64,000 nt of DNA from an uncultured Acidobacteriota bacterium (GTDB lineage Bacteria > Acidobacteriota > JAQAZP01): positions 3,330,442 to 3,394,441 of the forward strand of contig CAWIIB010000009.1 in the NCBI GenBank assembly GCA_963836075.1, read 5' to 3'. The position numbers were made by a program, and so were the translations under genes. The notes beneath the pieces were generated by a model. It had not been told where the DNA came from. It saw only the letters and a list, made by a program, of their open reading frames with translations, and did not search any database. Numbering within the stretch: the stretch's first letter is position 1; each line of letters begins with the position of its first letter. Positions 18,679 through 54,763 of the stretch are shown here, piece after piece.

Positions 18679-21405
18679 TCATTCGGCCCGGACGCCGGCG
18701 ATATTGCCCCCGTAGGTCATCCAGTCATTGTAGGCAAGGAAGCTGTGGTCGGCGATATAATCGACCCTGCTCTCCCGGACTTTATACGAATGGAGATAGG
18801 CCTTTGCCTCAGGGTCCGGGCCCTGCAGGGTAAGGATTTCATCCACGCCGTCCTGGTCCGCATCCCCGGCCGAGACTTTGGCGCCATACCAGGTGCCATA
18901 GTAAGGAAAGGCGATGAAATTGACGTTGCCCATCAGGGTCAGGTTGCCACCGTCAAAGTTCCACCCCCGGATGTGACCGGAGAACGAGGGCCCCGGGCCC
19001 GGGGCGGTGAGGATCTCGTCGATCCCGTCGCCGTCGATATCGCCGGCCGCCACTTCCACCCCGAAACGGGGTGTGTTGTAGGCGAAGAAGTTGACCCCCG
19101 GGATCGGGGTGGTGCTGCCGCCGTCGTCGTGGTTCCAGCCCCGCACGTGGGCGCCGAACACCGGCCCGGGCCCGGCCCCGGTGATGATCTCATCGAAACC
19201 GTCGCCGTCGATATCGCCGGTGGCCACTTTCACCCCGAATCGGGGCGTGTTGTAGGCGAAGAAGTTGACCCCCGGGATGGGGAGAACGGTGCCGCTGCCG
19301 TCATGGTTCCAGCCCCGCACGTGGGCGCCGAACACCGGACCGGGTCCGGCGCCGGTGATGATCTCATCCTTCCCGTCGCCGTCGATGTCGCCGGCCGCCA
19401 CGTTGACCCCGTGGCGGTGCGTGCCGTAGGCCATGAAACTGCCCCCGGTCACGGGGGTGCCGCTCATCGACCAGCAGCGGACGTGGGGGCCGAAGATCTG
19501 GCCCGGGCCAGGCCCGGTGATCACTTCGGATGCTCCATCACCATGGAGGTCTCCGCAGGCCACGTTGACGCCATAACCCGGGACGCCGTAGGCCAGCCAC
19601 TGGGCTGCGGGGGTGCGGACCAGCGGCGGGTTGTACCTGCCGGGGCCGGGGCCGGTGACCATGTTGACCATTCCCTCATCCGCTTCCCATGGATAAACGA
19701 ATATGGTGCGCACGGCGGGGGTGTTGTCGATCCGTCCCTCGAGATCCCGGGTCCGGACGGAGAAGGTATGGGCTCCTTCGGTGAGGCCCTGGAGCACGGC
19801 ATGCTGGACGGTGCTGAACGGGCTCCAGCTATCCGAGTCGACCTTCCAGGAGTATTGCAGTCCTTCGGCGGAGCCATGATGGTTGCGACCCGAAAACGCG
19901 AAAGTGAACATGGGTGAATCCACACCCCACTCCGGACCGGACGTGATCGTGGTGTCCGGATCGCGCACGGTGACGAAGTGGTGCCAGCCCATGTCGGCGA
20001 CGCCGGTATCGTCCAGGCCGTCGGTGCGGGTGCTGCCGATGACCCGGGCGTCGGAAAAGTCGCCCGAGTCGACACAGGGGCTCTGCACGGCCTGCCCGGA
20101 CGTGAACTGGCTCAGGTAGTGGTCGCCGCCCGGCCCGGCGGCGAACTCGGGATCGCCGGTGATCATCCCCTCCCCCCAGATGAATGTCACGTCATCGTCC
20201 ACTACGCAGGAGCCCGTACCGCCCTCCACGTCGCAGTGGCTGAATTTGATTGTGCACGGATAGGAGCTGGTGTAATTGCAGACGTAGAGTTCCGGGCCTT
20301 GCCATCCCGCCTCGTCATTCCAGAGTATCGAATTGACAATGACCAGGCTGTCCGCCTGCCCGGGGGATGGACCGTGAAATGACCTGTTGAAGTAGATCCC
20401 GCCGCCCTCGCCGGCGCTGTTCCCGTAGAATGTACTGCTGTTGATGGTGTGATTGCCGCCCCACTCGAAGGCGATCCCGCCGCCGCTCCCGGCATGGTTC
20501 TGCACAAAGATGTTGTTCACCAGGAAGGAGCTTCCACCGATCAAGTAAATTCCGCCGCCCAGGTCCGCGTCGTTCCAGCGAAATACGTTTTTCGAAATCT
20601 CCCCCGGCTTGCTACTGAAACAGCAGATAGCACCGCCACGGCTGGGGGCTTCCATGTACCCTCCGGCTTCATTGCCGATGAAGGTGTTCTCCACGATGGT
20701 GGGGATAGAATCATTTCCACAGAAGATTCCGCCGCCCCCATAACCGTAAGTCGTACTGCCAGTGACATTGTGTGAGATGGTGTTCAGGGCGATGCGTGGA
20801 CTGCTGCCTTCGCTGCAATAGATGCCTCCACCGTCGTGAGCCCGGTTCCCGGTGATGATGTTGCCCACGATGGTGGGGGAGGCGCCGTTACCACAAACGA
20901 TCGCTCCACCCACAGTGGCCCGGTTGCCGGTGAGAATGTTGTAGGCGATTCGCGGTGAACTGTTTTGACAGAGGATGGCGCCGCCGCCAAAAGTAGTCCC
21001 GTAGCCATTGCGGATAGTGAACCCCTGCACAACCGATTTCTCGGACTCCCCACTTTGAAAGATGAACCCGCGGTGAGCGGTGGGACTGTCGACACGGCCG
21101 CAATCGATGATGCAGAAGTGGGTCTCGCCAGCCGACTTGACGGTGATCGCCTTGCCGTGGAAATCGATATCCCTGTTGCCGTCACCTGTGTACAGACCGT
21201 TGGCCACCAGCACCGTGTCGCCGTCAGCGGCGGCGTCGATCCCCGCCTGGATCGTGGGCTGGTCGGCCGGCACATGGATCGCGGCCGCCATGACCGATGC
21301 CGCCGGTATGGTGATGAGGATGAAGAAAACGAGAGCGAGTGCGGTGGAAAGCGGTGCGCGGTTGTGGGGATTCGATGCCGATTGACCGATCATGATGGCC
21401 TCCAT
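18679..21405 (-). CDS. secreted right-handed beta-helix repeat protein with C-terminal FG-GAP-like repeats
   Basis: Signal peptide; parallel beta-helix repeats (...GGAILCQNSSPRIAYNILTGNRATVGGAIVCGNGASPTIVGNIITGNRA...); C-terminal ...VAAGDIDGDGKDEIITGAGPGPVFGAHVRGWN... repeats. Confidence 0.6.
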   Translation of the reverse strand: MEAIMIGQSASNPHNRAPLSTALALVFFILITIPAASVMAAAIHVPADQPTIQAGIDAAADGDTVLVANGLYTGDGNRDIDFHGKAITVKSAGETHFCIIDCGRVDSPTAHRGFIFQSGESEKSVVQGFTIRNGYGTTFGGGAILCQNSSPRIAYNILTGNRATVGGAIVCGNGASPTIVGNIITGNRAHDGGGIYCSEGSSPRIALNTISHNVTGSTTYGYGGGGIFCGNDSIPTIVENTFIGNEAGGYMEAPSRGGAICCFSSKPGEISKNVFRWNDADLGGGIYLIGGSSFLVNNIFVQNHAGSGGGIAFEWGGNHTINSSTFYGNSAGEGGGIYFNRSFHGPSPGQADSLVIVNSILWNDEAGWQGPELYVCNYTSSYPCTIKFSHCDVEGGTGSCVVDDDVTFIWGEGMITGDPEFAAGPGGDHYLSQFTSGQAVQSPCVDSGDFSDARVIGSTRTDGLDDTGVADMGWHHFVTVRDPDTTITSGPEWGVDSPMFTFAFSGRNHHGSAEGLQYSWKVDSDSWSPFSTVQHAVLQGLTEGAHTFSVRTRDLEGRIDNTPAVRTIFVYPWEADEGMVNMVTGPGPGRYNPPLVRTPAAQWLAYGVPGYGVNVACGDLHGDGASEVITGPGPGQIFGPHVRCWSMSGTPVTGGSFMAYGTHRHGVNVAAGDIDGDGKDEIITGAGPGPVFGAHVRGWNHDGSGTVLPIPGVNFFAYNTPRFGVKVATGDIDGDGFDEIITGAGPGPVFGAHVRGWNHDDGGSTTPIPGVNFFAYNTPRFGVEVAAGDIDGDGIDEILTAPGPGPSFSGHIRGWNFDGGNLTLMGNVNFIAFPYYGTWYGAKVSAGDADQDGVDEILTLQGPDPEAKAYLHSYKVRESRVDYIADHSFLAYNDWMTYGGNIAGVRAE

Positions 21406-21499: not shown

Positions 21500-21973
21500 T
21501 CAGGACGACCCGCCTCGTCCGGGACCCTGGCCGTGACGCGTTCGGCCCTGGCCACCCTGCCAGTGGCCCTGGTTGTTCCATAGCGGAATCTGGTGCAGGG
21601 ACCGGAGGCGCACCATCAGTCCCCGGGACGTGTTGAGGACCTTGTGGGCCTTGCCGGGCCCCTCATCTCCGACAAAGTACTTGACCTTCAGCTGGTCCCC
21701 CGGCTCGACGGAGAATCCGATGTCATCCATCGCTTGCGGCGGGGCGAGGAGAATGGTCACCGGGTGATCTTTGTCACCTTTCGGGGCGAGGCTTACCTGC
21801 ACCACTTCGATACCGCCCTCACCGGCAATGCGGCTGACCGTCAGCACTTCGCCCTCCACGGTCTTCAGCGAGGAGCGGGGGGCAGGCCCGTCCGACCCCT
21901 CTGCCGAGACGGCCAGGCCCAGCAGCAGGCCGCAGCAGAGAAGGAGCAGACTGTAGTGGCGGAACAGCCTCAC
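21500..21973 (-). CDS. small secreted protein with Gly/His/Gln-rich C-terminal tail
   Basis: GTG start with RBS GGGAGGAG; GTGA overlap with upstream gene stop; signal peptide RLFRHYSLLLLCCGLLLGLAVSA; tail ...HWQGGQGRTRHGQGPGRGG. Confidence 0.5.
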   Translation of the reverse strand: MRLFRHYSLLLLCCGLLLGLAVSAEGSDGPAPRSSLKTVEGEVLTVSRIAGEGGIEVVQVSLAPKGDKDHPVTILLAPPQAMDDIGFSVEPGDQLKVKYFVGDEGPGKAHKVLNTSRGLMVRLRSLHQIPLWNNQGHWQGGQGRTRHGQGPGRGGSS

Positions 21974-22947
21974 AGGACGTCTCCTCCCAACCAGAGCCGG
22001 CCCGGCGTGTGGCGGCCCACGGAGATCCCGATGGCCAGCGAGACGTCCGGCGACGCGTTCCCCAGGCCCACCAGCACCCGGCCATACCAGCGGTAGCGGC
22101 CGGTGGTCCGCACGGATGCGCCGAAGTTGAACACCTCGCCCGTGTCCTCCACGGCTTCCTGTGCCGCGCTGATCCAGCCGGCAAGTATCACCCGGTCGGA
22201 GGCCAGCGGGTCGCTCTCCATCCCCACGTTGAGATCCAGCACGTCGTTCAGTTCGCCCCACGAGGGATCGCCCAGCCAGTTCCAGCCGATCCGGCCGTAG
22301 AGTGTGGATGACCAGAAGCGGTAGCCGCTCCAGAAACCGATCCGGTAGTCGGTCTCACCGGTGCCCATGCCATTGTCGGCGTCGGCTGTGGGGAGTTTAA
22401 CTTCCAGTTCGGCATCCAGGCGAAAAACTTTCACGCCGCCGCCCACCAGGCGCCGGGAGAGGGCTACGAGGATGTCCCCGATACCGTTGGCCGTTTCGTC
22501 ATAATGTGAAATATCGCCTTCACCCCCGTCGCCACCTCCGCCTCCGCCTCCGCCACCACCGCCACCACCGCCACCACCGCCACCGCCACCGCCGCCGTCA
22601 CCACCGCCACCACCACTGCCACCACCACTGCCGCCACGCCGCCTTCTCTCGTTCTCCCCGCCCACCGGCATGGTTCCGGCGCCGGTGCGTACCACGCTGT
22701 AGGACGTGTCCATCACCAGGTAGGGCAGATTGACCCTCAGCTGCCAGGCATCGCCGAGAATGTACTGCAGGTTCGCGGCCCAGGTGTCCACCTTGTCGTC
22801 GGTGCCGTAGTCGCCGGTGGTCCAGGAGGTGATCAGGGTCCATTCGCCCACCGGTTCGGCCACTGCCGCGGTGGAGGTGAGCAGTGCGAGGGCGAGGAGC
22901 AGGGCCTGGACGAATCGGCAACAGCCGGCAGTTCTGTTCCACCTCAT
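21970..22947 (-). CDS. secreted / putative outer-membrane protein with ~35-residue poly-Gly tract
   Basis: Signal peptide MRWNRTAGCCRFVQALLLALALLTSTAAVA; internal GGSGGGSGGGGGDGGGGGG... tract; alternating beta-strand-like C-terminal half. Confidence 0.45.
   Translation of the reverse strand: MRWNRTAGCCRFVQALLLALALLTSTAAVAEPVGEWTLITSWTTGDYGTDDKVDTWAANLQYILGDAWQLRVNLPYLVMDTSYSVVRTGAGTMPVGGENERRRRGGSGGGSGGGGGDGGGGGGGGGGGGGGGGGGGGGGDGGEGDISHYDETANGIGDILVALSRRLVGGGVKVFRLDAELEVKLPTADADNGMGTGETDYRIGFWSGYRFWSSTLYGRIGWNWLGDPSWGELNDVLDLNVGMESDPLASDRVILAGWISAAQEAVEDTGEVFNFGASVRTTGRYRWYGRVLVGLGNASPDVSLAIGISVGRHTPGRLWLGGDVL
22528..22646. repeat. GCC/ACC trinucleotide simple-sequence repeat (encodes poly-Gly on minus strand)
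   Basis: Directly visible run gccacctccgcctccgcctccgccaccaccgccaccacc... across ~120 bp. Confidence 0.85.
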
Positions 22948-22950
22948 GGA

Positions 22951-24315
22951 TCAGCCTTTCATCCCGTATTTCGAGATCTTGTAGCGCAGGGCCCGTTCCG
23001 ATATCCCCAGCTTGCGGGCGGCGCGGGACTGCACGCCGCTGGCCGCGGCCAATGCCTCGGTGATGGCCGATTTCTCCATCGCCGCTACCCGGCCGGGCAG
23101 CGAGTCGTTCTCTTCGTCCTGCGGGGCGCCGTTCTCGTGGCGCGATCCCAGCACCGCCGGGGGAAGGTCGCCGGCGGTGATCTGGTTCCTGCGGGCCAGC
23201 ACCATGCCTCGTTGCACGGCGTTCTCCAGCTCGCGGACATTGCCCGGGAAATCGTAGGCGATCAGCAGGTCCATGGCCTCCCGGGAGATCGACGCGGCGG
23301 TGCCGTCTTCGCCGTGCTTGGACAGGAAGTGATCCACCAGCAGCGGAATGTCCGATTTGCGATTGCGCAGCGGCGGGATTTCAATATTCACCACGGCCAG
23401 CCGGTAGAAAAGGTCATCCCTGAAGTCGCCCTTTTCGATGGCCTCCGGCAGGTTGCGGTGGGTGGCGGCGATAACCCGCACATCCACCGGCACGGTGGTG
23501 TTGGATCCCACGCGCTCCAGGGATCTCTCCTGGAGCACCCGCAGCAGCTTGACCTGGACCTCTGCCGGCAGGTCCCCGATCTCGTCGAGGAAAATGGTGC
23601 CGCCGGAAGCAACCTCGAACCGCCCCTGCCGCTCGCGATCGGCCCCGGTGAACGCCCCCTTCTCGTGCCCGAAGAGCTCGCTCTCCAGCAACTGGCTGGA
23701 GAGGGCGCTGGCATTCACGGCCACGAACGGGCCGCCGGCCCGGGGGCCGGCCCCGTGAATCGCCCGGGCCACCAGTTCCTTTCCCGTGCCGCTTTCCCCC
23801 TGCACCAGCACCGAGACATCGGAGCGGGACACCCGGGAGATGAGGGAGAGCACCTCGCTCATCACCCCGCCGGCGGTGACGATGCCGGGCACCGACTCGA
23901 ACCTGGCCAGCCGCGCCTTGAGGTCAATGTTTTCCCGGTGCAGCCGGCGTGCATCCAGCAACCGTCGCACCAGGTGTTCCACCTCGTCCAGGTCCAGAGG
24001 TTTGAGCAGGTAGTCCGCCGCCCCCTGTTTGAGACAGGCCACCGCATCCTCCACCGTACCAAAGGCGGTGGCCAGGATCACGGCCACTTCGGGGTTGACC
24101 CGCTGGATTTCCTCCAGCAGATGGGTCCCGTCCATCCGCGGCATTCGGATGTCGCTGATACAGAGGTCCGGTGCCTGCCGCACCACGGCATCCAGTGCCT
24201 CCCGGCCGTCGCCGGCCTCGGTCACTTTGGCGCCGAGGTCGCGGAGAAAGCCTGCAAGTTCTTCGCGCTGGGAGCGGTCGTCGTCCACCACCAGAATGCG
24301 GGCATCGAGGTTCAT
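22951..24315 (-). CDS. sigma-54-dependent response regulator (NtrC family)
   Basis: Receiver domain (ILVVDDD...DLCISDIRMP), AAA+ sigma54-interaction domain (GESGTGKE, GAFTGA), C-terminal HTH. Confidence 0.9.
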   Translation of the reverse strand: MNLDARILVVDDDRSQREELAGFLRDLGAKVTEAGDGREALDAVVRQAPDLCISDIRMPRMDGTHLLEEIQRVNPEVAVILATAFGTVEDAVACLKQGAADYLLKPLDLDEVEHLVRRLLDARRLHRENIDLKARLARFESVPGIVTAGGVMSEVLSLISRVSRSDVSVLVQGESGTGKELVARAIHGAGPRAGGPFVAVNASALSSQLLESELFGHEKGAFTGADRERQGRFEVASGGTIFLDEIGDLPAEVQVKLLRVLQERSLERVGSNTTVPVDVRVIAATHRNLPEAIEKGDFRDDLFYRLAVVNIEIPPLRNRKSDIPLLVDHFLSKHGEDGTAASISREAMDLLIAYDFPGNVRELENAVQRGMVLARRNQITAGDLPPAVLGSRHENGAPQDEENDSLPGRVAAMEKSAITEALAAASGVQSRAARKLGISERALRYKISKYGMKG

Positions 24316-25943
24316 ACTGTTTCTCCGTCGCCGCCGGCGGGCAGCTTCAACCGGGCCAGCGCACCGCCATTTTTCCTGCTGCGCAGGGTCGCCGAACCGC
24401 CGTGTTCTTCAGCCACCCGCCGGACCAGGGCCAGACCCAGGCCAACACCGCCGGCCTGGTTGGTGACAAAGGCGTCAAACAGCTGCTCCGCCGTGGCGTC
24501 ATCCACCCCGGGGCCTTCATCCGACACGCCCACCTGGACGAACCCGTTCGCTGCCGTGGTCTCCACTCGAACCTCGCCGCCGGCCGGGCTGGCCTGGATC
24601 GCGTTGCGCACCAGGTTGATCAGCGAACGGCGGATCGACTCCGGGTCCACCGGGGCCGGACAGGGGGGGCCGGACAGGGTGAGGCGCACGCCGGTGGATT
24701 CGGCCTCGTCGGTGAGCAGCTCCACCACCTCACCGGAGATGACCCGGAGATCGGTCTGTTTCCTGGACCGGCCCACCGGGCTGGCCAGTTCGAGGAATTC
24801 GCGAAGAATCGCTTCCAGCCGTCCTATCTCGCCGCGGACCTTGGCCGCAAAACGACCCACATCGTCCTGCGGTGGGTGAGTCCGTCCGATACGCTGTGCG
24901 GCGAGGCTGATGGCGTTGAGCGGCGACCGCACCTCGTGAGCCAGGCCGGCGGTGAGGGCGCCGGCGGCCGCCAGCCGCTCACTGCGCCTCCGTGCCGTCT
25001 CCACCTCGGCCAGACGCCGGGCCGCCGCTTCACGCTCCACGGCGCGACTTCTGGTGAGCAGGGCGATGAAGACCAGGGCCAGACTGAACACGGAGAGCAC
25101 GATGCCCACCATGGCCGTCCGGCGCACCGCGGATGCCGAAGCCGCGGCCAGGGGCCGCCCGTCCATCCCCACCCGCAGCGATGCCTGAAAACCGGCCGGT
25201 GCGCTCACCGGTACCACCACCTCGTACACTTCGCGGCCGCGCACCGTGCGACGGCCGTCACCTGCGTCCAGTCCCGGCGGGATCGGTTCGCCATCCCAGC
25301 TGGCCTCCAGCGGCTCCCCACCCGGGGAGACGGTGTAGCCGAGGTAGAGCACGCCTCCGGACCCGGCCAGCCGTTGGAGCAGGTTGGCCGCGCCGATGGT
25401 GCCGGAGAAGGCGAGGTTTGACCGTGCGTGCACCCTGACGATTACAGCGCCGCCGTCGACTGTCCGCACCACAGCAGCGATGTGTTCCACGCCGTCTTCC
25501 ATCTGTGGCCCGAGGATCATCTCGTCGGCCTTTCCCTCGATCACTTCAACCGCCTGCCGGCGCAGCGCATCGGGAACCGGTGCTCCCACGGATACGCTCT
25601 GGCTGCCCGCCCGGTCGAGGTGGACGATGGAGTCGAGGTCGTTCTGTTCTGCCAGGGCACCGGCTGCAGCAGCGGTGAGGCCGCCGGATTGCTGCAGGAC
25701 GGCGAGAATCCGTGTGTTTTCAAGAACCTTGGCCGTGGAGGTCTCCTCGATCTCCCGGGCCGCGGTGGAAGCCGCTTCGAGGCCCGGACCGAGGGTGCGG
25801 GCGAGGAGAGTGGCCTGGGCGGCCAGCACCTCGGCGGTTTCCCGCCGCTGGTTACGCCCTTCGTGGATCGCCCATGCGGCCAGTGCCATGGCGAGCACCA
25901 GCAGCGGAATCATGGTCGTCAGTGTTCGGAGCCTTCTCAACAT
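24312..25943 (-). CDS. sensor histidine kinase
   Basis: N-terminal TM segment, periplasmic region, second TM; H-box ...LAHEVRSPLNAI...; HATPase_c region; ATGA overlap with regulator gene. Confidence 0.8.
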   Translation of the reverse strand: MLRRLRTLTTMIPLLVLAMALAAWAIHEGRNQRRETAEVLAAQATLLARTLGPGLEAASTAAREIEETSTAKVLENTRILAVLQQSGGLTAAAAGALAEQNDLDSIVHLDRAGSQSVSVGAPVPDALRRQAVEVIEGKADEMILGPQMEDGVEHIAAVVRTVDGGAVIVRVHARSNLAFSGTIGAANLLQRLAGSGGVLYLGYTVSPGGEPLEASWDGEPIPPGLDAGDGRRTVRGREVYEVVVPVSAPAGFQASLRVGMDGRPLAAASASAVRRTAMVGIVLSVFSLALVFIALLTRSRAVEREAAARRLAEVETARRRSERLAAAGALTAGLAHEVRSPLNAISLAAQRIGRTHPPQDDVGRFAAKVRGEIGRLEAILREFLELASPVGRSRKQTDLRVISGEVVELLTDEAESTGVRLTLSGPPCPAPVDPESIRRSLINLVRNAIQASPAGGEVRVETTAANGFVQVGVSDEGPGVDDATAEQLFDAFVTNQAGGVGLGLALVRRVAEEHGGSATLRSRKNGGALARLKLPAGGDGETV

Positions 25944-25971
25944 GCGCCTATTTTACGCCGTAAAGCCCCGT

Positions 25972-26487
25972 TTAGCGACCGCCTCCGCAACTTCCGCCGC
26001 CGCCACCGCCGCCGCCGCGGGAGCCGCCATTGCCGCCTCGTTGACCGCTGCCGCTGCCGGTCCCGGGGCATTTCGGGTTCTGGATGCCGTCTCCGGGTAT
26101 TCCGCCGCAGGAGCCATCCCGGGTACGGGTCCTGGTCCACTGCTGGTTCATCTCACCGGTCCCGTTGCGGAACTTATACGAGGCACCGGTACGCCGGACT
26201 CTCATCCCCCGGGCCAGGGGAATACCGTCTTTCTCCATTCCGTCCAGCAGGTCGAGGCGCACCTGGTCACCGTCCAGCACCAGGCCGCGGCAGGTGCCGG
26301 CCTCGCCCAACCGGACCTGCATCCGCTGGCCTCCGGTGGTGAGGATGGTCAACTGGTCGAACCCCTGGGCGTCGGTCAATTCCACGACCCTGCCCTGGAT
26401 GCTGGGCGCCTGACTGTCACCCGCCATGGCGGTCGCCGCGCAGATGGCAAGTGTCAGGATCCACAATGCTGCGGTTCTCGTTTTCAT
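25972..26487 (-). CDS. small secreted protein with Gly-rich C-terminal tail
   Basis: RBS GAGGGAGGGAG; signal peptide MKTRTAALWILTLAICAATAMA; tail ...GSGSGQRGGNGGSRGGGGGGGGSCGGGR. Confidence 0.5.
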   Translation of the reverse strand: MKTRTAALWILTLAICAATAMAGDSQAPSIQGRVVELTDAQGFDQLTILTTGGQRMQVRLGEAGTCRGLVLDGDQVRLDLLDGMEKDGIPLARGMRVRRTGASYKFRNGTGEMNQQWTRTRTRDGSCGGIPGDGIQNPKCPGTGSGSGQRGGNGGSRGGGGGGGGSCGGGR

Positions 26488-26513
26488 CTGCTCCCTCCCT
26501 CACCGGTTTTTGT

Positions 26514-26557
26514 GTAAAAAAATGGCGGTCATGCATCACCATCACACGACCGCCATT
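26514..26557 (-). terminator. Rho-independent terminator-like hairpin followed by U7
   Basis: Minus strand: TGGCGGTC - 17-nt loop - GACCGCCA then TTTTTTT, immediately downstream of 26580..27050. Confidence 0.5.
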
Positions 26558-26579
26558 CGGTTCCTGCTCGTCCCCTCAG

Positions 26580-27050
26580 TTAGCGGAGAGCGAGCGCAAA
26601 GTCCTGAACCAGGGTCTCACCCTCGGCGACGGTCACCGGAGTCAGTTCGGTGGGCAGGTAGCCGCAGGCGCAGGCGCGCATCAGGTAGTCAGCGGCATCG
26701 AGGTTTTCAATGACATAGACGCCGTTGGCATCGGTCTCGACCCGGGTGGCCATTCCCGCGCCGCCGCCGTGGTAACCGCCGCCAAAACCACCGCCACCGC
26801 CGCTGCCGGATCCGCCGCCGCTGCCCCAGCCGTGGTCGCCGCCGTGGAACTGCGAGCCGCCGCCGCCGCTGCAGCCGTCCGCCGGGCGGATGGTCACGAA
26901 GGCTCCTTCGATGGGCAGACCGGTGTCCGCGTCGGTCACCGTGCCGGTGACCGTGGCTGTCTGGGCCATGGCGGTGGCGCCGGTCAGGGCCACGGCCGCC
27001 ACAAAGATGAGGGCAGTCTTGATCAGCGATGATTTCGTGAGTTTGAACAT
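26580..27050 (-). CDS. secreted carboxypeptidase-regulatory-like domain protein with Gly/His-rich insert
   Basis: Signal peptide; ...TATVTGTVTDADTGLPIEGAFVTIRP... and ...TDANGVYVIENLDAADY... flanking a GGGGSQFHGGDHGWGSGGGSGSGGGGGFGGGYHGGGAG insert. Confidence 0.5.
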   Translation of the reverse strand: MFKLTKSSLIKTALIFVAAVALTGATAMAQTATVTGTVTDADTGLPIEGAFVTIRPADGCSGGGGSQFHGGDHGWGSGGGSGSGGGGGFGGGYHGGGAGMATRVETDANGVYVIENLDAADYLMRACACGYLPTELTPVTVAEGETLVQDFALALR

Positions 27051-27300
27051 CTTCTCTCCTTTTAGCAGTTCACATGAATCCTTAAAATGATGAAAACCTT
27101 CTGATTGAGGCCCGATTCAAATCCTCCTTTCCCCCTGGTTTCAAACCGTGGTGGTATGGGCAACCCGTCAAATCGATCTCTGCAGTTGGTGTCGAGCCAT
27201 TCGTGATGACCGTGACACCAGATTCATGGAGCAAGAACCGTACCAGACGAAAACAAAGGACTTACGGGCGGGAATTCGACATTTCGGGCGGATGGCCGGG

Positions 27301-27330
27301 CCCCGGTTCGACGAAATTGTCGAACCGGGG
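27301..27330 (-). terminator. hairpin (12-bp perfect stem, 6-nt loop) downstream of 27343..28611
   Basis: CCCCGGTTCGAC-gaaatt-GTCGAACCGGGG, 12 nt from the stop codon; no clear U-tract. Confidence 0.3.
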
Positions 27331-36173: not shown

Positions 36174-36509
36174 ATGGCCGACGAACGGAGGAGACCGAAA
36201 AGAGAGGAGACCGGGCCAGGTCCCGGTGGCCTCGGTGATGTGTTTGCCGGACCCGAAACGGGCGGGGCGGTAACGGTTTGCCATGGACCGTACAGCGAGG
36301 ATCTGCCGGTGGGCAACATGAGTGTGGGTGAGGTCCGGCGCCGGTTCTCGGACCGCCTGGACATCGACCCCCAGAGCCAGGCGGTGATCGACGGCAACGA
36401 GGTGGACGACAGCACCGTGCTGCGCGGCGGCCAACTGCTGGCCTTTATCCGGCAGGCTGGTGAAAAGGGCGGGAGGAGACGGTCCCACGGGGGAGGATCG
36501 CCATGTTGA
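36174..36509 (+). CDS. small beta-grasp-like protein with internal Gly-Gly and short C-terminal extension; candidate ubiquitin-like modifier precursor
   Basis: RBS GGAGGAG before ATG 36174; ...GGQLLAFIRQAGEKGG followed by RRRSHGGGSPC; ThiS/MoaD/ubiquitin-like size. Confidence 0.45.
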   Translation: MADERRRPKREETGPGPGGLGDVFAGPETGGAVTVCHGPYSEDLPVGNMSVGEVRRRFSDRLDIDPQSQAVIDGNEVDDSTVLRGGQLLAFIRQAGEKGGRRRSHGGGSPC

Positions 36510-37453
36510 GCAAGCTGGCCGCAAGGCGGGCGGAGGCGCGGTCCGCTTCGCGCCGGCAGACGGTGCACCAGGTGACCATCAAGGGTGAGCTGGTCTCCAC
36601 GGCCACCCCGGAGGGGCAGCCGGTCTGCATGAAACTGAAGGACCTGCTGGGGCTGATCTCGACCCACGGGGATCGATCGCTGGAGACCGGAGGCCTGTTG
36701 CCCGACGGGGTCAAGCTGGTCCGGTCCCGGGGGCCGGTGACCGTCTGGACCTACCAGCGGCCACCCCAGGTGCACAACCTGAGGTGGATCGCCGCCGACT
36801 CTCCCGTGCCGTTCGGAAAGGGCAGCACCTACCGCTCGGTGCGTATCGCGCTGCCCTACCTGGTGGTGCTGGCCGTGTTTATCACCGGGAGGAACAACCG
36901 TCTGCAGCTGTCGCAATACAACGAGTGCTTTTTCCGCAACGAACCTCTGAAGAGTGTTGAGGACCAGCTGTTCTACCCGGCACTGCTCAACTGTTCGAAG
37001 TTCAACCCGCAGGAGGGGCACCCGCTTTCCTGGATCTGCACCGCAAATATGGACCTCAGGCGTCTGGGCCGGCTCCCGGACGAGAACGAACGGATGCGGG
37101 GCAGTATGAATGCTCTGCTGCACTGCCTGCTGGAAACCGGTTACAACCATTCCAGCGAACACCACGAGGAGACAAGCTGGTTCACCGAGTCCGCCACGGT
37201 GGACCCGCGGGTCGCCACCGTCGAGAGGTGGGAGCAGGCCACCGCCAAAGACAGTCTTTTCGTCCTTGACGTCCCCTGGCTCAAAACCGGCAGGAGCCTG
37301 GGGCAGGTGATCGAAAGGATATTCGACAATGCCGGCAGTTCCCGCGGACGGCTGGCCACTTCCAATGACCTGATGCGGCTGATGGCCAACAACAGCGAGC
37401 GGCTGCCGGCGAAGGAAGAAGCGCAGGGGGTATTTATCGATGAACTGTTCTGA
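36503..37453 (+). CDS. hypothetical protein (operon member)
   Basis: 316-aa ORF overlapping previous stop by 7 nt; contains a hydrophobic segment (LPYLVVLAVFI); no motif recognised. Confidence 0.4.
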   Translation: MLSKLAARRAEARSASRRQTVHQVTIKGELVSTATPEGQPVCMKLKDLLGLISTHGDRSLETGGLLPDGVKLVRSRGPVTVWTYQRPPQVHNLRWIAADSPVPFGKGSTYRSVRIALPYLVVLAVFITGRNNRLQLSQYNECFFRNEPLKSVEDQLFYPALLNCSKFNPQEGHPLSWICTANMDLRRLGRLPDENERMRGSMNALLHCLLETGYNHSSEHHEETSWFTESATVDPRVATVERWEQATAKDSLFVLDVPWLKTGRSLGQVIERIFDNAGSSRGRLATSNDLMRLMANNSERLPAKEEAQGVFIDELF

Positions 37454-38348
37454 GGACAGACTGCTCACGCCGATCTACCTGCGGACGAGCGAGGAGATGC
37501 ACTGGCCGGAGGACACGGTGTTTTACATGCTCACCGGCAGCGGTCTCTTTCTCTGCCGCAACAACGAGCACTTCCGCAGCTGTGTTCCGGCCCGCGGCTG
37601 GCCCGGGGAACTGCCCGGTCAGGAAAAGTTCCTCGATCTGCACTATCCCCGGCTGCCCCGGCGGCTGCTGGAACGGGCGGTGGGCTTTTTCGAAGCGGTG
37701 GGGCGCAAACACGATGCGGAAGCGGCACTGCTCCTGGCCTGGGACAGCGAGCGCGAGGTTTACCGCCTGGTGATTCCCCGGCAGCGTTGTACCGTGTACC
37801 TCAACTGGCAGGGGGACACCTCGCCCCAGGGCGTGCACTACGACCTTCCGGAACGCGTGCCCGAGACCTGGATCATTGTTGGCGACATCCACAGCCACGT
37901 CGATTTTTCGGCATACTCCTCGGCCACCGACCAGCACGACGAGCACTACCGCACTGGTCTGCACATCGTGGTGGGCCGCATCTACGACGAGCCGCCCCAG
38001 TTTCATGTGGAAGCCACGGTGGACGGTATGCGCTTTCCCGTCCAGCCGGAGGATATTTTCGAGGGCTACGATTCCCGGAGAAGCGATTTCCCCGAGCAGT
38101 GGTTCGACTGGCTGAAGATCGAACTCGGTTCCGCTTTCACATACTCGGACAGCAGCAAATGGAGTTCCGGCACTGGTTCCTCCGGCTGCAGCGGCCATGG
38201 CCACACGGCCTGTTCACCGATGCCGGCCCCCCGGGGCGGTACCACCGGTTATTCGGTCGCTCCGCTGGAAACGTATCGCAGTTCGGGAAACGGCGGGAAA
38301 AAGAAGGGCGGTGGCCGCAACCGTGACGGCCGGGGGAAACGTCGATGA
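37440..38348 (+). CDS. JAB/MPN (JAMM) metallopeptidase; candidate deubiquitinase/Ubl-processing peptidase
   Basis: Exact JAMM motif H-x-H-x7-S-x2-D in ...IVGDIHSHVDFSAYSSATDQHDE... with upstream Glu; Gly/Ser/Lys-rich C-terminal tail. Confidence 0.75.
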   Translation: MNCSEDRLLTPIYLRTSEEMHWPEDTVFYMLTGSGLFLCRNNEHFRSCVPARGWPGELPGQEKFLDLHYPRLPRRLLERAVGFFEAVGRKHDAEAALLLAWDSEREVYRLVIPRQRCTVYLNWQGDTSPQGVHYDLPERVPETWIIVGDIHSHVDFSAYSSATDQHDEHYRTGLHIVVGRIYDEPPQFHVEATVDGMRFPVQPEDIFEGYDSRRSDFPEQWFDWLKIELGSAFTYSDSSKWSSGTGSSGCSGHGHTACSPMPAPRGGTTGYSVAPLETYRSSGNGGKKKGGGRNRDGRGKRR

Positions 38349-39175
38349 GCGGGGTCGGGAGGGAACAGGTGGTTCTGATGCCCGCTCTGGCCGACCACAC
38401 GGCGGTCAAAATCATCGGTCTGGGCGGAGTGGGCGGCATCGTGGCCCGCTACCTGTCCATCTTCCTCGCCTCGCTGGACCGCGACCTGCGGCTGGTGCTC
38501 ATCGACGGCGACGAGTTCGAGCCGTCCAATGCCACACGGATGCTGTTCTCCGATCACGGCAACAAGGCCGCGGTCACTCGCGCCGAACTCCGGGAACGCT
38601 TTGCCGACACGTCCCTCATGCTGACTGCCGTGGAGCAGTATGTGAAGCCGGACAACATTCACCGCCTGATTCAGAATGATGACGTGGTCATCCTGGCCGT
38701 GGACAACCACGCCACGCGAAAGCTGGTCAGCGAGCACTGCCGGAGCCAGTTGAACGACGTGTGCCTGATCTCGGGGGGGAATGACGGCGTGGGCCCCGAC
38801 GGGTCGGGTTCCCGGCGGCGGGGCACATACGGCAACTGCCAGATTTATTTGCGCCGGGGCGGCCGGGATCTATGTCCCCCGATCACCCGGTATCATCCCG
38901 AGATCCGGGAACCGGCGGATCACAGCCCCGCCGAGGAGAACTGCACCGAACTGATCAAGTCGGTGCCGCAGATCCTGTTCGCTAACCTGGCCGCGGCATC
39001 GGCCATCCTCAACGCCTTCTGGCTCCATTGCTGCTCCGCGCTGCACTACAGCGAACTCAGCTTCGACATTGCCGATGGTCTGATGCGGCCCATGCCCCTG
39101 CCGGCCCCTCTCGTCATCGCGAGGAGCCCGAAGGGTGAAGCGGCGCTCTCTTCGGATGTCTTTCCGGTTCAATGA
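38345..39175 (+). CDS. E1-like ThiF/MoeB-family adenylyltransferase
   Basis: ATGA overlap with JAB gene; nucleotide-binding ...VKIIGLGGVGGIVARYL... and ...LIDGDEFEPSNATRMLF... motifs. Confidence 0.75.
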   Translation: MSGVGREQVVLMPALADHTAVKIIGLGGVGGIVARYLSIFLASLDRDLRLVLIDGDEFEPSNATRMLFSDHGNKAAVTRAELRERFADTSLMLTAVEQYVKPDNIHRLIQNDDVVILAVDNHATRKLVSEHCRSQLNDVCLISGGNDGVGPDGSGSRRRGTYGNCQIYLRRGGRDLCPPITRYHPEIREPADHSPAEENCTELIKSVPQILFANLAAASAILNAFWLHCCSALHYSELSFDIADGLMRPMPLPAPLVIARSPKGEAALSSDVFPVQ

Positions 39176-39294: not shown

Positions 39295-40059
39295 TCAGCC
39301 GTCGAGGAGGATACTTGAGCAGGTGAGCCCCGATTCGGCCTTGAGCAGCTCGGAGATGTCCACCGTCTTCACCTGGAAACCTGCCGCGCGGACTGCGGAG
39401 ATGGTCCGCCCGAACTCCCGGTGGAGGCAGACAAAGCGGCCGGCCCGGAGGGCGTTGGCCGCCTCGGCTTCGTCGTCATCCACTGGAATGACGGTGAAAC
39501 CGGCGAAGGGGCCGGGGTCGAAAAGGCCCTGGCGGGCCAGCAGGGTCTGGTCGTCCAGAGCGGAGACCGCCGACTTGAGGTGCAGGCAGCCTTTCATGGT
39601 CACCGGGACCACCGTGTAGCCGTGGGGCGACAGCAGGCGGGACAACTGGTCGATCCCGTCCTGGTTGGTGCGCGCGGAGAGGCCGACATAGAGGGTCCGG
39701 CCCACACGGAGCACGTCGCCGCCTTCCAGGGTGCCCGGCTCCACGATCCGTTCCAGCGGTCGGTAACCGGCCAGCACCGGCTCAATACCGGCCACCTCAC
39801 CGCGCCGGGACAGGACGCCCGGCCGGGCAAGCACGGCCAGTTCATCCACCACCACTGCCGTGTCCTCGATGAACGTGCAGTCGGGGTGCGCAATGTTGAC
39901 ATCGGTTTCCAGCACCTGGTACCCGCAATCCTCGAGCATCCGGCGGTAGCCGGCATGCTGGGCCCGTGCCAGTTCGAGGTTGATCGGCTCCCGTCGGCGG
40001 AAGCTCAGCTCGCAGCGGTTGATCCGGGGTGAGACCACGTGGGTCAGGGCAATATTCAT
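39295..40059 (-). CDS. dimethylarginine dimethylaminohydrolase-like protein (amidinotransferase superfamily)
   Basis: ~254 aa; C-terminal ...ESGLTCSSILL... with candidate catalytic Cys. Confidence 0.65.
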   Translation of the reverse strand: MNIALTHVVSPRINRCELSFRRREPINLELARAQHAGYRRMLEDCGYQVLETDVNIAHPDCTFIEDTAVVVDELAVLARPGVLSRRGEVAGIEPVLAGYRPLERIVEPGTLEGGDVLRVGRTLYVGLSARTNQDGIDQLSRLLSPHGYTVVPVTMKGCLHLKSAVSALDDQTLLARQGLFDPGPFAGFTVIPVDDDEAEAANALRAGRFVCLHREFGRTISAVRAAGFQVKTVDISELLKAESGLTCSSILLDG

Positions 40060-53983: not shown

Positions 53984-54763
53984 ATGAATCGTTTGAAGAT
54001 CATTGCCATGGCGCTGGCGGTCATCATGATGATCGCCGGATTCGCCGAAGCCCGCGGGCAGAGCGCTGAAGATCCGAGCCAGGCCAGCCCGGCTTCCCCG
54101 GCGGCGGCAAGCCTGAGCGACTACGAGAAGAACTCCCTTCTGCTGATGCGCCAGGAGGAAAAACTGGCCCGTGACGTGTATCTGACTCTGGGCGAGAAGT
54201 ACAACCTGCCGGTATTCAACAACATCCCCCAGGCCGAACAACGCCACATGGACCAGTTGGGACAGTTGCTGGAGAAATACGGCATGGACGATCCAGTTGC
54301 GGGGCTGGCGCGGGGAAAGTTTAACAGCGGCGAGATGCAGAGCCTCTATAACAAGTTGGTGGCCCAGGGCAGCAAGAGTCTCGCGGATGCTCTGCAGGCA
54401 GGTGCCACCATCGAAGACATGGACATTCACGATCTGGAGCAGGCCCTGGCCGGGGGCGTGGACAACCGGGACATGGTGCGGGTGTACCGCAACCTGGCCA
54501 AGGGTTCACGCAACCACATGCGGGCCTTCACCTCGCAGTTGAAGGCCCATGATGCGGTATACAAGGCCCAGTATATTTCCCAGGCTGATCTGGAGGCGAT
54601 TATGAACTCCGACTGGGAACGCGGCCCGGCTGACGGCCAGGGGCATGGCAGGCAGGGGCGTGGCGGCAAAGGCCGGGGACAGGGGCGCGGCCAGGGGGGG
54701 GGCCATGGCCAGGGCGGAGCTCCGGCGGATTCCGGCCAATCTGCTGATTCGGACAAGCCCTGA
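53984..54763 (+). CDS. DUF2202-like (ferritin-like) secreted protein with Gly/His/Gln/Arg-rich C-terminal tail
   Basis: RBS GGAAGGAGA; signal peptide MNRLKIIAMALAVIMMIAGFAEA; tail GQGHGRQGRGGKGRGQGRGQGGGHGQGG. Confidence 0.5.
   Translation: MNRLKIIAMALAVIMMIAGFAEARGQSAEDPSQASPASPAAASLSDYEKNSLLLMRQEEKLARDVYLTLGEKYNLPVFNNIPQAEQRHMDQLGQLLEKYGMDDPVAGLARGKFNSGEMQSLYNKLVAQGSKSLADALQAGATIEDMDIHDLEQALAGGVDNRDMVRVYRNLAKGSRNHMRAFTSQLKAHDAVYKAQYISQADLEAIMNSDWERGPADGQGHGRQGRGGKGRGQGRGQGGGHGQGGAPADSGQSADSDKP

Follow-up and report, generated by a model that had tools for sequence, protein, structure and literature searches.

The 64-kb stretch of contig CAWIIB010000009.1 analysed here (hereafter the window), from an uncultured Acidobacteriota bacterium, carries between positions 21500 and 27050 a cassette of six genes, all found on the minus strand, that appears to join a sigma-54 two-component system to the exported proteins under its control. 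The cluster is as a sequence-only reading of this DNA had described it, with all six members present and confirmed by gene calls and domains. The first gene, g1 (26580-27050), encodes a 156-aa exported CarboxypepD_reg beta-sandwich protein with a Gly/His/Trp/Cys loop, and g2 (25972-26487; also smallA/X or OB-X) a 171-aa exported basic protein with a predicted oligonucleotide/oligosaccharide-binding (OB) fold and a Cys/Arg/Gly tail. They are followed by g3 (24312-25943), a sensor histidine kinase with HisKA and HATPase_c domains, g4 (22951-24315), an NtrC-type sigma-54 activator with REC, Sigma54_activat and HTH_8 domains, g5 (21970-22947), a putative outer-membrane barrel of the COG4313/PF13557/FapF superfamily with a Gly-rich loop, and g6 (21500-21973; smallB/Y or OB-Y), a second exported protein with a predicted OB fold, which ends in a conserved Gly-rich tail. 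Genes g2 to g6 are tightly spaced, with gaps of 28 and 3 nt plus two 4-nt overlaps. The g6 gene was assigned a GTG start codon at 21973, which is preceded by the ribosome-binding site GGGAGGAG and overlaps the g5 stop (GTGA), so that its product is 157 aa long instead of the 253 aa of the listed open reading frame (ORF). Sec-type signal peptides were recognized by eye at the N-termini of g1, g2, g5 and g6.

Control by sigma-54, proposed in the sequence-only reading, appears well supported by the conserved DNA upstream of g1. A predicted -24/-12 promoter, TGGTACGGTTCTTGC (TGGTAC-GGTTC-TTGC), lies at 27231..27245 on the minus strand, with the g1 start codon about 180 nt further downstream, and differs from TGGCAC-N5-TTGC by one mismatch with the GG and GC intact. 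It is preceded on the same strand by tandem palindromes. Upstream activator site 1 (27307..27324) is the perfect palindrome TTCGACAATTTCGTCGAA, the sole exact match to TTCGAC-N6-GTCGAA in the window and a predicted binding site for a g4 dimer; upstream activator site 2 (27275..27292, TCCGCCCGAAATGTCGAA) has one good half-site, and 32 bp separate its centre from that of site 1. A further block, GTAAGTCCTTTGTTT (27251..27265, minus strand), stands between these two sites and the promoter. In an alignment of the orthologous upstream regions (77% mean column identity), the palindrome, the second GTCGA half-site, GTAAGTCCTTTGTTT and TGGTAC...TTGCT are invariant, and the arrangement is conserved in five orthologous loci. 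Locus by locus, site 1 is unchanged in four aligned orthologous loci, while the fifth, L005, keeps both half-sites around an inverted spacer, as predicted for recognition by a symmetric dimer; the site 2 half-site GTCGA(A/G) is retained in five of five loci at a spacing of 31-32 bp; and the promoter elements TGGTA and TTGCT are retained in all five, L005 having TGGTAT.

A search of the whole window for TGGCAC-N5-TTGC, of the kind suggested as a genome-wide check on sigma-54 control, recovered the conserved site at 27231-27245. With at most two mismatches allowed, the 57 matches found against 74 expected amount to no overall enrichment. With at most one mismatch there are three sites, among which only 27231-27245 is intergenic and correctly oriented in the cassette. 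A lack of sigma-54 promoters near these genes, named in the sequence-only reading as grounds for refuting it, is contradicted by this site. The promoter thus owes its significance to its position, its conservation and the associated enhancer, and the match count adds nothing to it.

The GTAAGTCCTTTGTTT block, identical in all five sequences of the alignment (alignment A2), is possibly a bending site or the site of a third protein; an integration host factor site was considered and rejected, as the block fits that consensus poorly by eye. The g1 leader of about 180 nt (27051-27230, minus strand) contains the blocks TTGCCGGGTTGCC, GAAACCAGGGGGAAAGGAGGA and GGCYTCAAYCAGAAGGTTTTC, conserved in five loci, and its GGA-rich block may be recognized by a post-transcriptional regulator. 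A structured RNA in the leader was unsupported, with a weak consensus fold and almost no covariation; a search of the region against Rfam gave no RNA family, and the leader holds no conserved small ORF. At the other end of g1, in the spacer before g2 (26516..26557, minus strand), lies an intrinsic terminator-like hairpin, AATGGCGGTC...GACCGCCATT followed by U7, which is present in the minimum-free-energy fold of the 95-nt spacer (-28.3 kcal/mol for the whole spacer, z -2.3). The hairpin and T-run are retained in five of five loci, and promoter prediction gave no sigma-70-like site in the interval from g1 to g2, which together suggest that g1 is probably the main product and that g2 to g6 are expressed by read-through.

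The g4 product has the features of an NtrC-type sigma-54 enhancer-binding response regulator: its REC, AAA+ and Fis-type HTH domains match PF00072 (1.8e-30), PF00158 (4.7e-70) and PF02954 (4.2e-12), respectively, and the GAFTGA motif is visible in its translation. The recognition helix SERALRYK is common to all cassette regulators, and an exact-protein look-up of g4 returned no match. Against the ZraR equivalog model NF007689, g4 scored 431.4 bits (cut-off 760); the AtoC and NtrC models of NCBIfam outscore ZraR on g4, yet they too stay below their own cut-offs. The g3 kinase has two transmembrane segments and a periplasmic domain of about 250 aa, followed by the HisKA and HATPase_c domains recognized by Pfam. 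Its best NCBIfam matches are ZraS and AtoS, both below cut-off and confined to the cytoplasmic part; the ZraS equivalog NF007688 gave 157.2 bits (cut-off 479) over residues 251-536 only, leaving the periplasmic domain unaligned. The periplasmic domain has no Pfam match, and a PDB sequence search with it returned only noise or matches to GGGGS linkers. It is 50% identical to that of the kinase in L133, one of the distant loci described below.

The six-gene order is kept in three orthologous loci (L001, L002 and L005) and, as far as the contigs extend, in two more (L003 and L004). Insert (g1), tails (g2 and g6) and loop (g5) are each retained in the orthologs, in unchanged positions. Among 5.8 billion proteins searched, the g2 and g6 families comprised 13 and 20 cluster representatives, respectively, all from metagenomes or metagenome-assembled genomes (MAGs); in a scan of 185,579 species, with one genome each, the g2 family was found in two MAGs, one of them labelled Acidobacteriota. 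More distant cassettes, with barrels 36-49% identical to g5, were recovered in L128, L130/L131, L133 and L134, with fragments in L132. These have a five-gene core of OB-X, kinase, regulator, barrel and OB-Y, and no g1. Between the window and L133, identity is 50% for the kinases from end to end, periplasmic domain included, and 48% for the OB-Y proteins; between the window and L130 it is 40% for the OB-X proteins.

The enhancer-promoter arrangement recurs ahead of homologous exported-protein genes in the distant cassettes, again in agreement with the proposed sigma-54 control. There a (T/C)TCGAC-N6-GTCGA(A/G) palindrome stands 55-115 nt upstream of a GG-N10-GC promoter, ahead of OB-X and, separately, of the barrel gene, and in L132 ahead of OB-Y. 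Two of these cassettes, L133 and L134, have in addition a sigma-54-type promoter on the opposite strand of the OB-X promoter region, facing a divergent DUF2202 gene. A palindrome scan of metagenomes gave, among the matches listed, mostly chance occurrences inside the dnaA coding sequence (FDNFVEG) and no known cassette; the informative ones were L080 and L113. In L080 (reverse strand, 36-800), the palindrome, a second half-site and TGGCACGCCGGTTGC stand ahead of a DUF2202 lipoprotein gene, whose adjoining regulator is 54% identical to g4. In L113 (2870-8321, GC 0.42), several exported proteins are encoded in a row behind two adjacent palindromes and TGGCATAGTTCTTGC, and by eye the final two resemble CsgG-family lipoproteins. 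Judging from these unrelated contigs, the TTCGAC-N6-GTCGAA enhancer type may serve a wider activator subfamily. Taken together, there is good comparative evidence that a g4-type activator would bind the palindrome and control a small, self-contained regulon of exported proteins.

The non-regulatory products of the cassette are envelope proteins, comprising two predicted OB folds, a CarboxypepD_reg protein identified by Pfam and a barrel assigned by homology. The g1 product matches PF13620 with 57.5 bits (cut-off 32.3; 1.8e-15) in two stretches, between which lies the insert GCSGGGGSQFHGGDHGWGSGGGSGSGGGGGFGGGYHGGGAGM, 42 residues long, 60% Gly and containing His, Trp and Cys. Conserved among its orthologs are the insert with Cys60, HGW and HH, and a C127xC129 motif in the sandwich. 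A search of 1.84 billion proteins yielded just one cluster representative of full-length g1. His/Gly inserts occur at the same CarboxypepD_reg loop in other lineages (P0186, P0241, P0227, P0188 and P0141); g1 is like them in the position of the loop and differs in being a stand-alone domain, encoded first in a sigma-54 operon.

No Pfam or NCBIfam family was matched by g2 or g6, and PDB sequence searches with their profiles returned only GGGGS-linker or noise matches. AlphaFold2 models built with family alignments predict both cores to be OB folds, as five-stranded closed beta-barrels, with a predicted local distance difference test (pLDDT) score of about 80-93 over residues 29-106 of g2 and mostly 82-95 over residues 35-125 of g6, where one 10-residue block scored 74. 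Direct BLAST detected no similarity between g2 and g6; comparison of the family profiles gave a weak in-register match over strands 1-3 (probability 54%), and the two families may be distant paralogs. The mature proteins are basic (pI 9.5 for g2 and 9.2 for g6). Their tails were modelled with low confidence (pLDDT <50) and are predicted to be disordered. The g2 tail has 48 residues, 50% of them Gly with one 8-Gly run, and ends in SCGGGR; its orthologs share an invariant Cys127 and an RGG-type end. The g6 tail ends in ...GHWQGGQGRTRHGQGPGRGGSS and contains the motif LRTLRQIPLWNNQGHWQGGQGR..HG.GPGRGG (PLW..G.WQGG..RGG), which is conserved as sequence, beyond mere composition. Periplasmic OB-fold stress proteins (the BOF family YgiW/YdeI, CusF and CcmE) count among the closest known systems.

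When plausible genes of the window were scanned for at least 10 Gly in 20 residues, such segments were confined to three cassette proteins and one DUF2202 protein, so their clustering is not a general trait of a GC-rich genome. The DUF2202 gene (53984-54763, plus strand) encodes an exported ferritin-like protein (Pfam 4e-56) with a Gly/Arg/His/Gln tail, GQGHGRQGRGGKGRGQGRGQGGGHGQGG; DUF2202 has been described as ferritin-like (bioRxiv 10.1101/2020.01.10.902569). Upstream of it are a sigma-70-like TTGACT-N17-TATTCT site and the palindrome TTCACGAAATCGTGAA. The C-terminal ending ...CGGGR(R) is shared by otherwise unrelated proteins of the module, including the DUF2202 proteins of L133 (3019-3720) and L134 (3021-3722; PLCGGGRR), and similar ends are seen in g2 orthologs (SCGGGR or RGGGR) and in the OB-X of L128 (GGGCPGR). 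This recurrent ending might be a common processing, sorting or binding signal. The PEP-CTERM and GlyGly-CTERM sorting signals were considered and rejected, since the tails are without a hydrophobic helix; cassette tails end in GGGR or RGGSS and have no PEP motif, and g4 scored 396.1 bits against the equivalog TIGR02915 of the PrsR type, from the PEP-CTERM/PrsK-PrsR system, below its cut-off of 502.6.

In g5, the poly-Gly tract of about 35 residues noted in the sequence-only reading proved fairly described: some 39 residues are dominated by Gly and include an uninterrupted 22-Gly run, encoded at about 22530-22637 by imperfect GGN repeats of period 9-15. The whole Gly-rich loop comprises 40-55 residues; it is Gly-rich in close orthologs, Gly/Ser/Pro-rich in distant ones and short in ordinary PF13557 proteins. 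With poly-Gly removed, g5 alone scored 13.6 bits against PF13557 (E 0.069; gathering score 22 bits), and homologs found at E 1e-14 to 1e-5 carry PF13557. A barrel-family profile including PF13557 members matched most of the barrel of FapF (PDB 5O65, E 7e-11), while a profile from the cassette barrels alone did not recover FapF in the PDB; the relationship therefore holds at superfamily level only. On this homology g5 is predicted to be an outer-membrane barrel of the 12-strand type. Its mature protein has 295 aa and an N-terminus, EPVGEW, that directly enters the first strand. The motif KLPTAD..G.GTGE, with K184, P186, T187, A188, D189, G195, G197 and D200 invariant in 36 sequences, aligned with the first PTG motif of FapF (VKAPTG), which sits where the beta5-beta6 loop has its base, on the extracellular rim (PMC5557850). 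The preceding beta3-beta4 loop, which bears the poly-Gly, should then face outward, and we predict it to lie at the cell surface.

Compared with known channels, g5 shares with the COG4313/PF13557 members Pput2725, SphA and TcpY the mature size of about 270-320 aa and the KLPTAD...GTGE (PTG) motif, and differs from them by its poly-Gly loop and by a sigma-54 two-component context in place of a catabolic operon. Its likeness to FapF lies in the profile match and in operons that both hold exported low-complexity proteins, whereas g5 is without the N-terminal coiled coil and plug helix, the FapA-E partners and amyloid repeats; no fap genes are present.

The cassette as a whole is of a type already known, a sigma-54 two-component system controlling exported accessory proteins. 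Such systems have been described chiefly in enterobacteria (ZraPSR and QseEGF/GlrKR). In ZraPSR, which responds to zinc and envelope stress in E. coli and Salmonella, ZraR activates the divergent sigma-54 promoters of zraSR and of zraP, which encodes a zinc-binding periplasmic chaperone (PMC4987338). The cassette and ZraPSR are alike in combining a kinase that has a periplasmic domain, for which ZraS is the top-scoring NCBIfam model, with an NtrC-type activator that, in the cassette by prediction from sequence, drives its own operon and a small exported accessory protein with Gly/His-rich ends. They also share a -24/-12 promoter with palindromes upstream, here predicted and conserved, and the distant cassettes have divergent promoters as do zraP and zraSR. 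Membership in ZraPSR fails nonetheless. Neither g3 nor g4 comes near the cut-off of its equivalog model (ZraS and ZraR, respectively), the sensor domain is unaligned, and g2 and g6 are predicted OB folds in contrast to the helical CpxP/Spy/ZraP family; ZraPSR also has no counterpart to the outer-membrane barrel, the CarboxypepD_reg protein or the DUF2202 protein. The cassette resembles ZraPSR in logic only.

From these data a regulatory model can be drawn that we regard, on the conserved DNA and protein features, as highly probable. The g3 kinase would sense a periplasmic cue through its family-specific 250-residue domain and phosphorylate g4, as the domains of both suggest. Dimers of g4 would then bind both TTCGAC-N6-GTCGAA sites, whose centres lie about 64 and 96 bp upstream of the predicted start point, and drive sigma-54 RNA polymerase at the -24/-12 promoter. 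The hairpin after g1 would end most transcripts, making the CarboxypepD_reg protein with the Gly/His loop the main product, and read-through would supply g2 to g6. The output would be four exported effectors, namely the g1 product, two basic periplasmic OB-fold proteins with disordered Cys/His/Arg/Gly tails, and one barrel, the gene of which is translationally coupled to g6.

As to function, our preferred reading is a self-contained, positively autoregulated sigma-54 envelope-response module that buffers metal or redox stress, to which we assign a probability of roughly 0.4. Its most likely role would be to buffer or sense periplasmic stress from metal cations or redox-active metals; the flexible tails may bind ligands with low affinity or behave like chaperones, and might also modulate the kinase by feedback, a tail logic that would be the same as that of ZraP with ZraSR, carried out by unrelated proteins. 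The metal/redox or envelope-stress role is suggested by Cys/His/Met content and by association with DUF2202. Hints of this kind are the Cys conserved in the g2 tail and in the CxC of g1, the CxxC pairs in the OB-X of L133 and L134, the Gly/His/Met tail GMGAGHGGAGGGMGAGHGG of the L128 OB-X, the His/Gly inserts at the CarboxypepD_reg loop in other lineages, and a ferritin-like DUF2202 gene that appears co-regulated in L133, L134 and L080.

Several findings weigh against a metal role. The low-complexity segments, read from the sequence alone as rich in Gly, His and Gln, are indeed Gly-rich but poor in His, with 0-3 residues each (g1 loop, three; g2 tail, none; g6 tail, two), and to our knowledge pure poly-Gly is not recognized as a metal ligand. 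The periplasmic domain of the kinase has one invariant His and no invariant Cys. Neither a canonical metal domain nor an efflux gene is present in the cassette, its proteins gave no match to known metal-binding families, and no gene for metal efflux or resistance is conserved beside the cassette in the orthologous or distant loci. The DUF2202 gene of the window, 27 kb from the cassette, has no recognizable activator-site palindrome or -24/-12 promoter upstream.

The same parts can be read in other ways. The cassette might be a generic envelope-stress module in which the Gly tracts are slippage expansions tolerated in a GC-rich genome and the folded domains alone matter, a reading that we consider unlikely. 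The imperfect repeats behind the poly-Gly of g5 would fit it, as would the variation of poly-Gly length and interruptions among orthologs and the replacement by Gly/Ser/Pro in distant relatives; what it does not explain is that every ortholog, and the distant cassettes too, have low-complexity segments in matching positions, that the motif of the g6 tail and the cysteines of the g2 tail hardly vary in sequence, beyond composition, and that within the window such segments are confined to the functional group of cassette and DUF2202. Scarcely worth entertaining is an assembly or sequencing artefact in low-complexity DNA, which the repetitive GGN coding and nothing else would recommend. The sequence-only reading had named absence of the tails from orthologs as the sign of such an artefact. 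The Gly-rich tails on exported proteins are real and retained in orthologs, and independent JGI, NCBI, ENA and Logan assemblies encode the same segments, an identical g6 protein being recorded in those of NCBI, ENA and Logan; the preservation of gene order, tails and loops across five related loci from metagenomes likewise argues against an assembly artefact.

Two further readings, which we hold to be similarly improbable, start from the barrel. If g5 were a FapF-like pore, it could export unfolded Gly-rich polypeptides (the tails or the whole of g1, g2 or g6) that, under sigma-54 control, would build or modify a matrix or surface layer. FapF, the amyloid-subunit secretion pore matched by the barrel-family profile, passes unfolded substrates (PMC5557850), the g5 and g6 genes are translationally coupled, the tails are predicted to be disordered, and L113, with the same enhancer-promoter arrangement, has its two CsgG-like ORFs downstream. 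On the other hand, the profile built from cassettes alone misses FapF, g5 has no coiled coil or plug helix, there is neither a FapD-like protease nor amyloid repeats, and the well-folded OB or beta-sandwich cores of the candidate cargo should be unable to pass through a 12-stranded barrel. Alternatively, g5 could be an import channel of the COG4313 type for a hydrophobic or poorly permeant small molecule, with the OB-fold proteins as binders or escorts and the two-component system sensing the substrate. The PF13557 domain of its homologs would agree with inducible uptake, the characterised members TcpY, SphA and Pput2725 being substrate-induced and linked to uptake of hydrophobic compounds (PMC4493636); no catabolic or inner-membrane transport gene is conserved beside the cassette, and the Cys/His/Arg/Gly tails and the co-regulated DUF2202 would be left unexplained. 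Less probable again is that the cassette represents an undescribed envelope system exporting or displaying glycine-rich polypeptides, for example as a metal- or mineral-interacting coat, in which a plug-less barrel of FapF/COG4313 type, with its long poly-Gly loop at the surface, and two new OB-fold families, with their conserved disordered tails (PLW..G.WQGG and Cys/RGG), would be served by their own sigma-54 two-component system and palindromic enhancer.

The surroundings of the cassette differ between loci. Directly downstream in the window (18679-21405, minus strand) lies a gene whose 908-aa exported product combines FG-GAP repeats with a right-handed beta-helix (NosD/DUF1565-like); L002 has an FG-GAP protein of 889 aa in a comparable place, and L001 has none there. 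Upstream, a block of about 12 kb (27343-39175) with lower GC (0.535 at 28-30 kb) stands between the cassette enhancer and an ADI/DDAH-like gene (39295-40059). The immediate upstream neighbour of g1 is a DDAH-like gene in L003 and L004 and an ADI/DDAH-like gene in L002, while L001 has ABC-F genes and a 63-aa ORF there; because the DDAH-like gene directly adjoins g1 in L003 and L004, an insertion seems to account for the block. Its genes encode an HTH-like protein, Prok-RING_1, two ThiF/E1-like proteins, Prok-JAB and an AAA ATPase with a proteasomal-ATPase OB domain, and it looks like a prokaryotic ubiquitin-like conjugation island. Among the distant cassettes, the gene after OB-Y in L128 (9424-11673) encodes a 749-aa protein with several CxxCH motifs by eye, whose sole Pfam match is a weak, sub-cut-off Cytochrome_C7 and which is likely a multihaem cytochrome c; cytochrome bd oxidase genes follow OB-Y in L134, and AhpC/redoxin-like fragments are found in L130. 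Near some cassettes, though inconsistently, there are genes for a multihaem cytochrome, cytochrome bd oxidase, redoxin or Fur/peroxidase, which count as a further hint of a metal or redox role.

The set of parts in the cassette had no description in Pfam, NCBIfam or the literature searched, and the literature searches returned no paper on the cassette, on a role of DUF2202 in such a system or on the palindrome motif. The finding would mean that uncultured bacteria of the Acidobacteriota type use the same control logic as enterobacteria, built from different parts: two OB-fold families without a Pfam or NCBIfam model, a barrel with a poly-Gly loop and a CarboxypepD_reg protein with a Gly/His loop. 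Because the TTCGAC-N6-GTCGAA enhancer and the promoter can be read from conserved DNA, the predicted regulon is directly testable in a heterologous host, and the conserved disordered tails offer a defined case for the role of glycine-rich low-complexity segments on bacterial envelope proteins.

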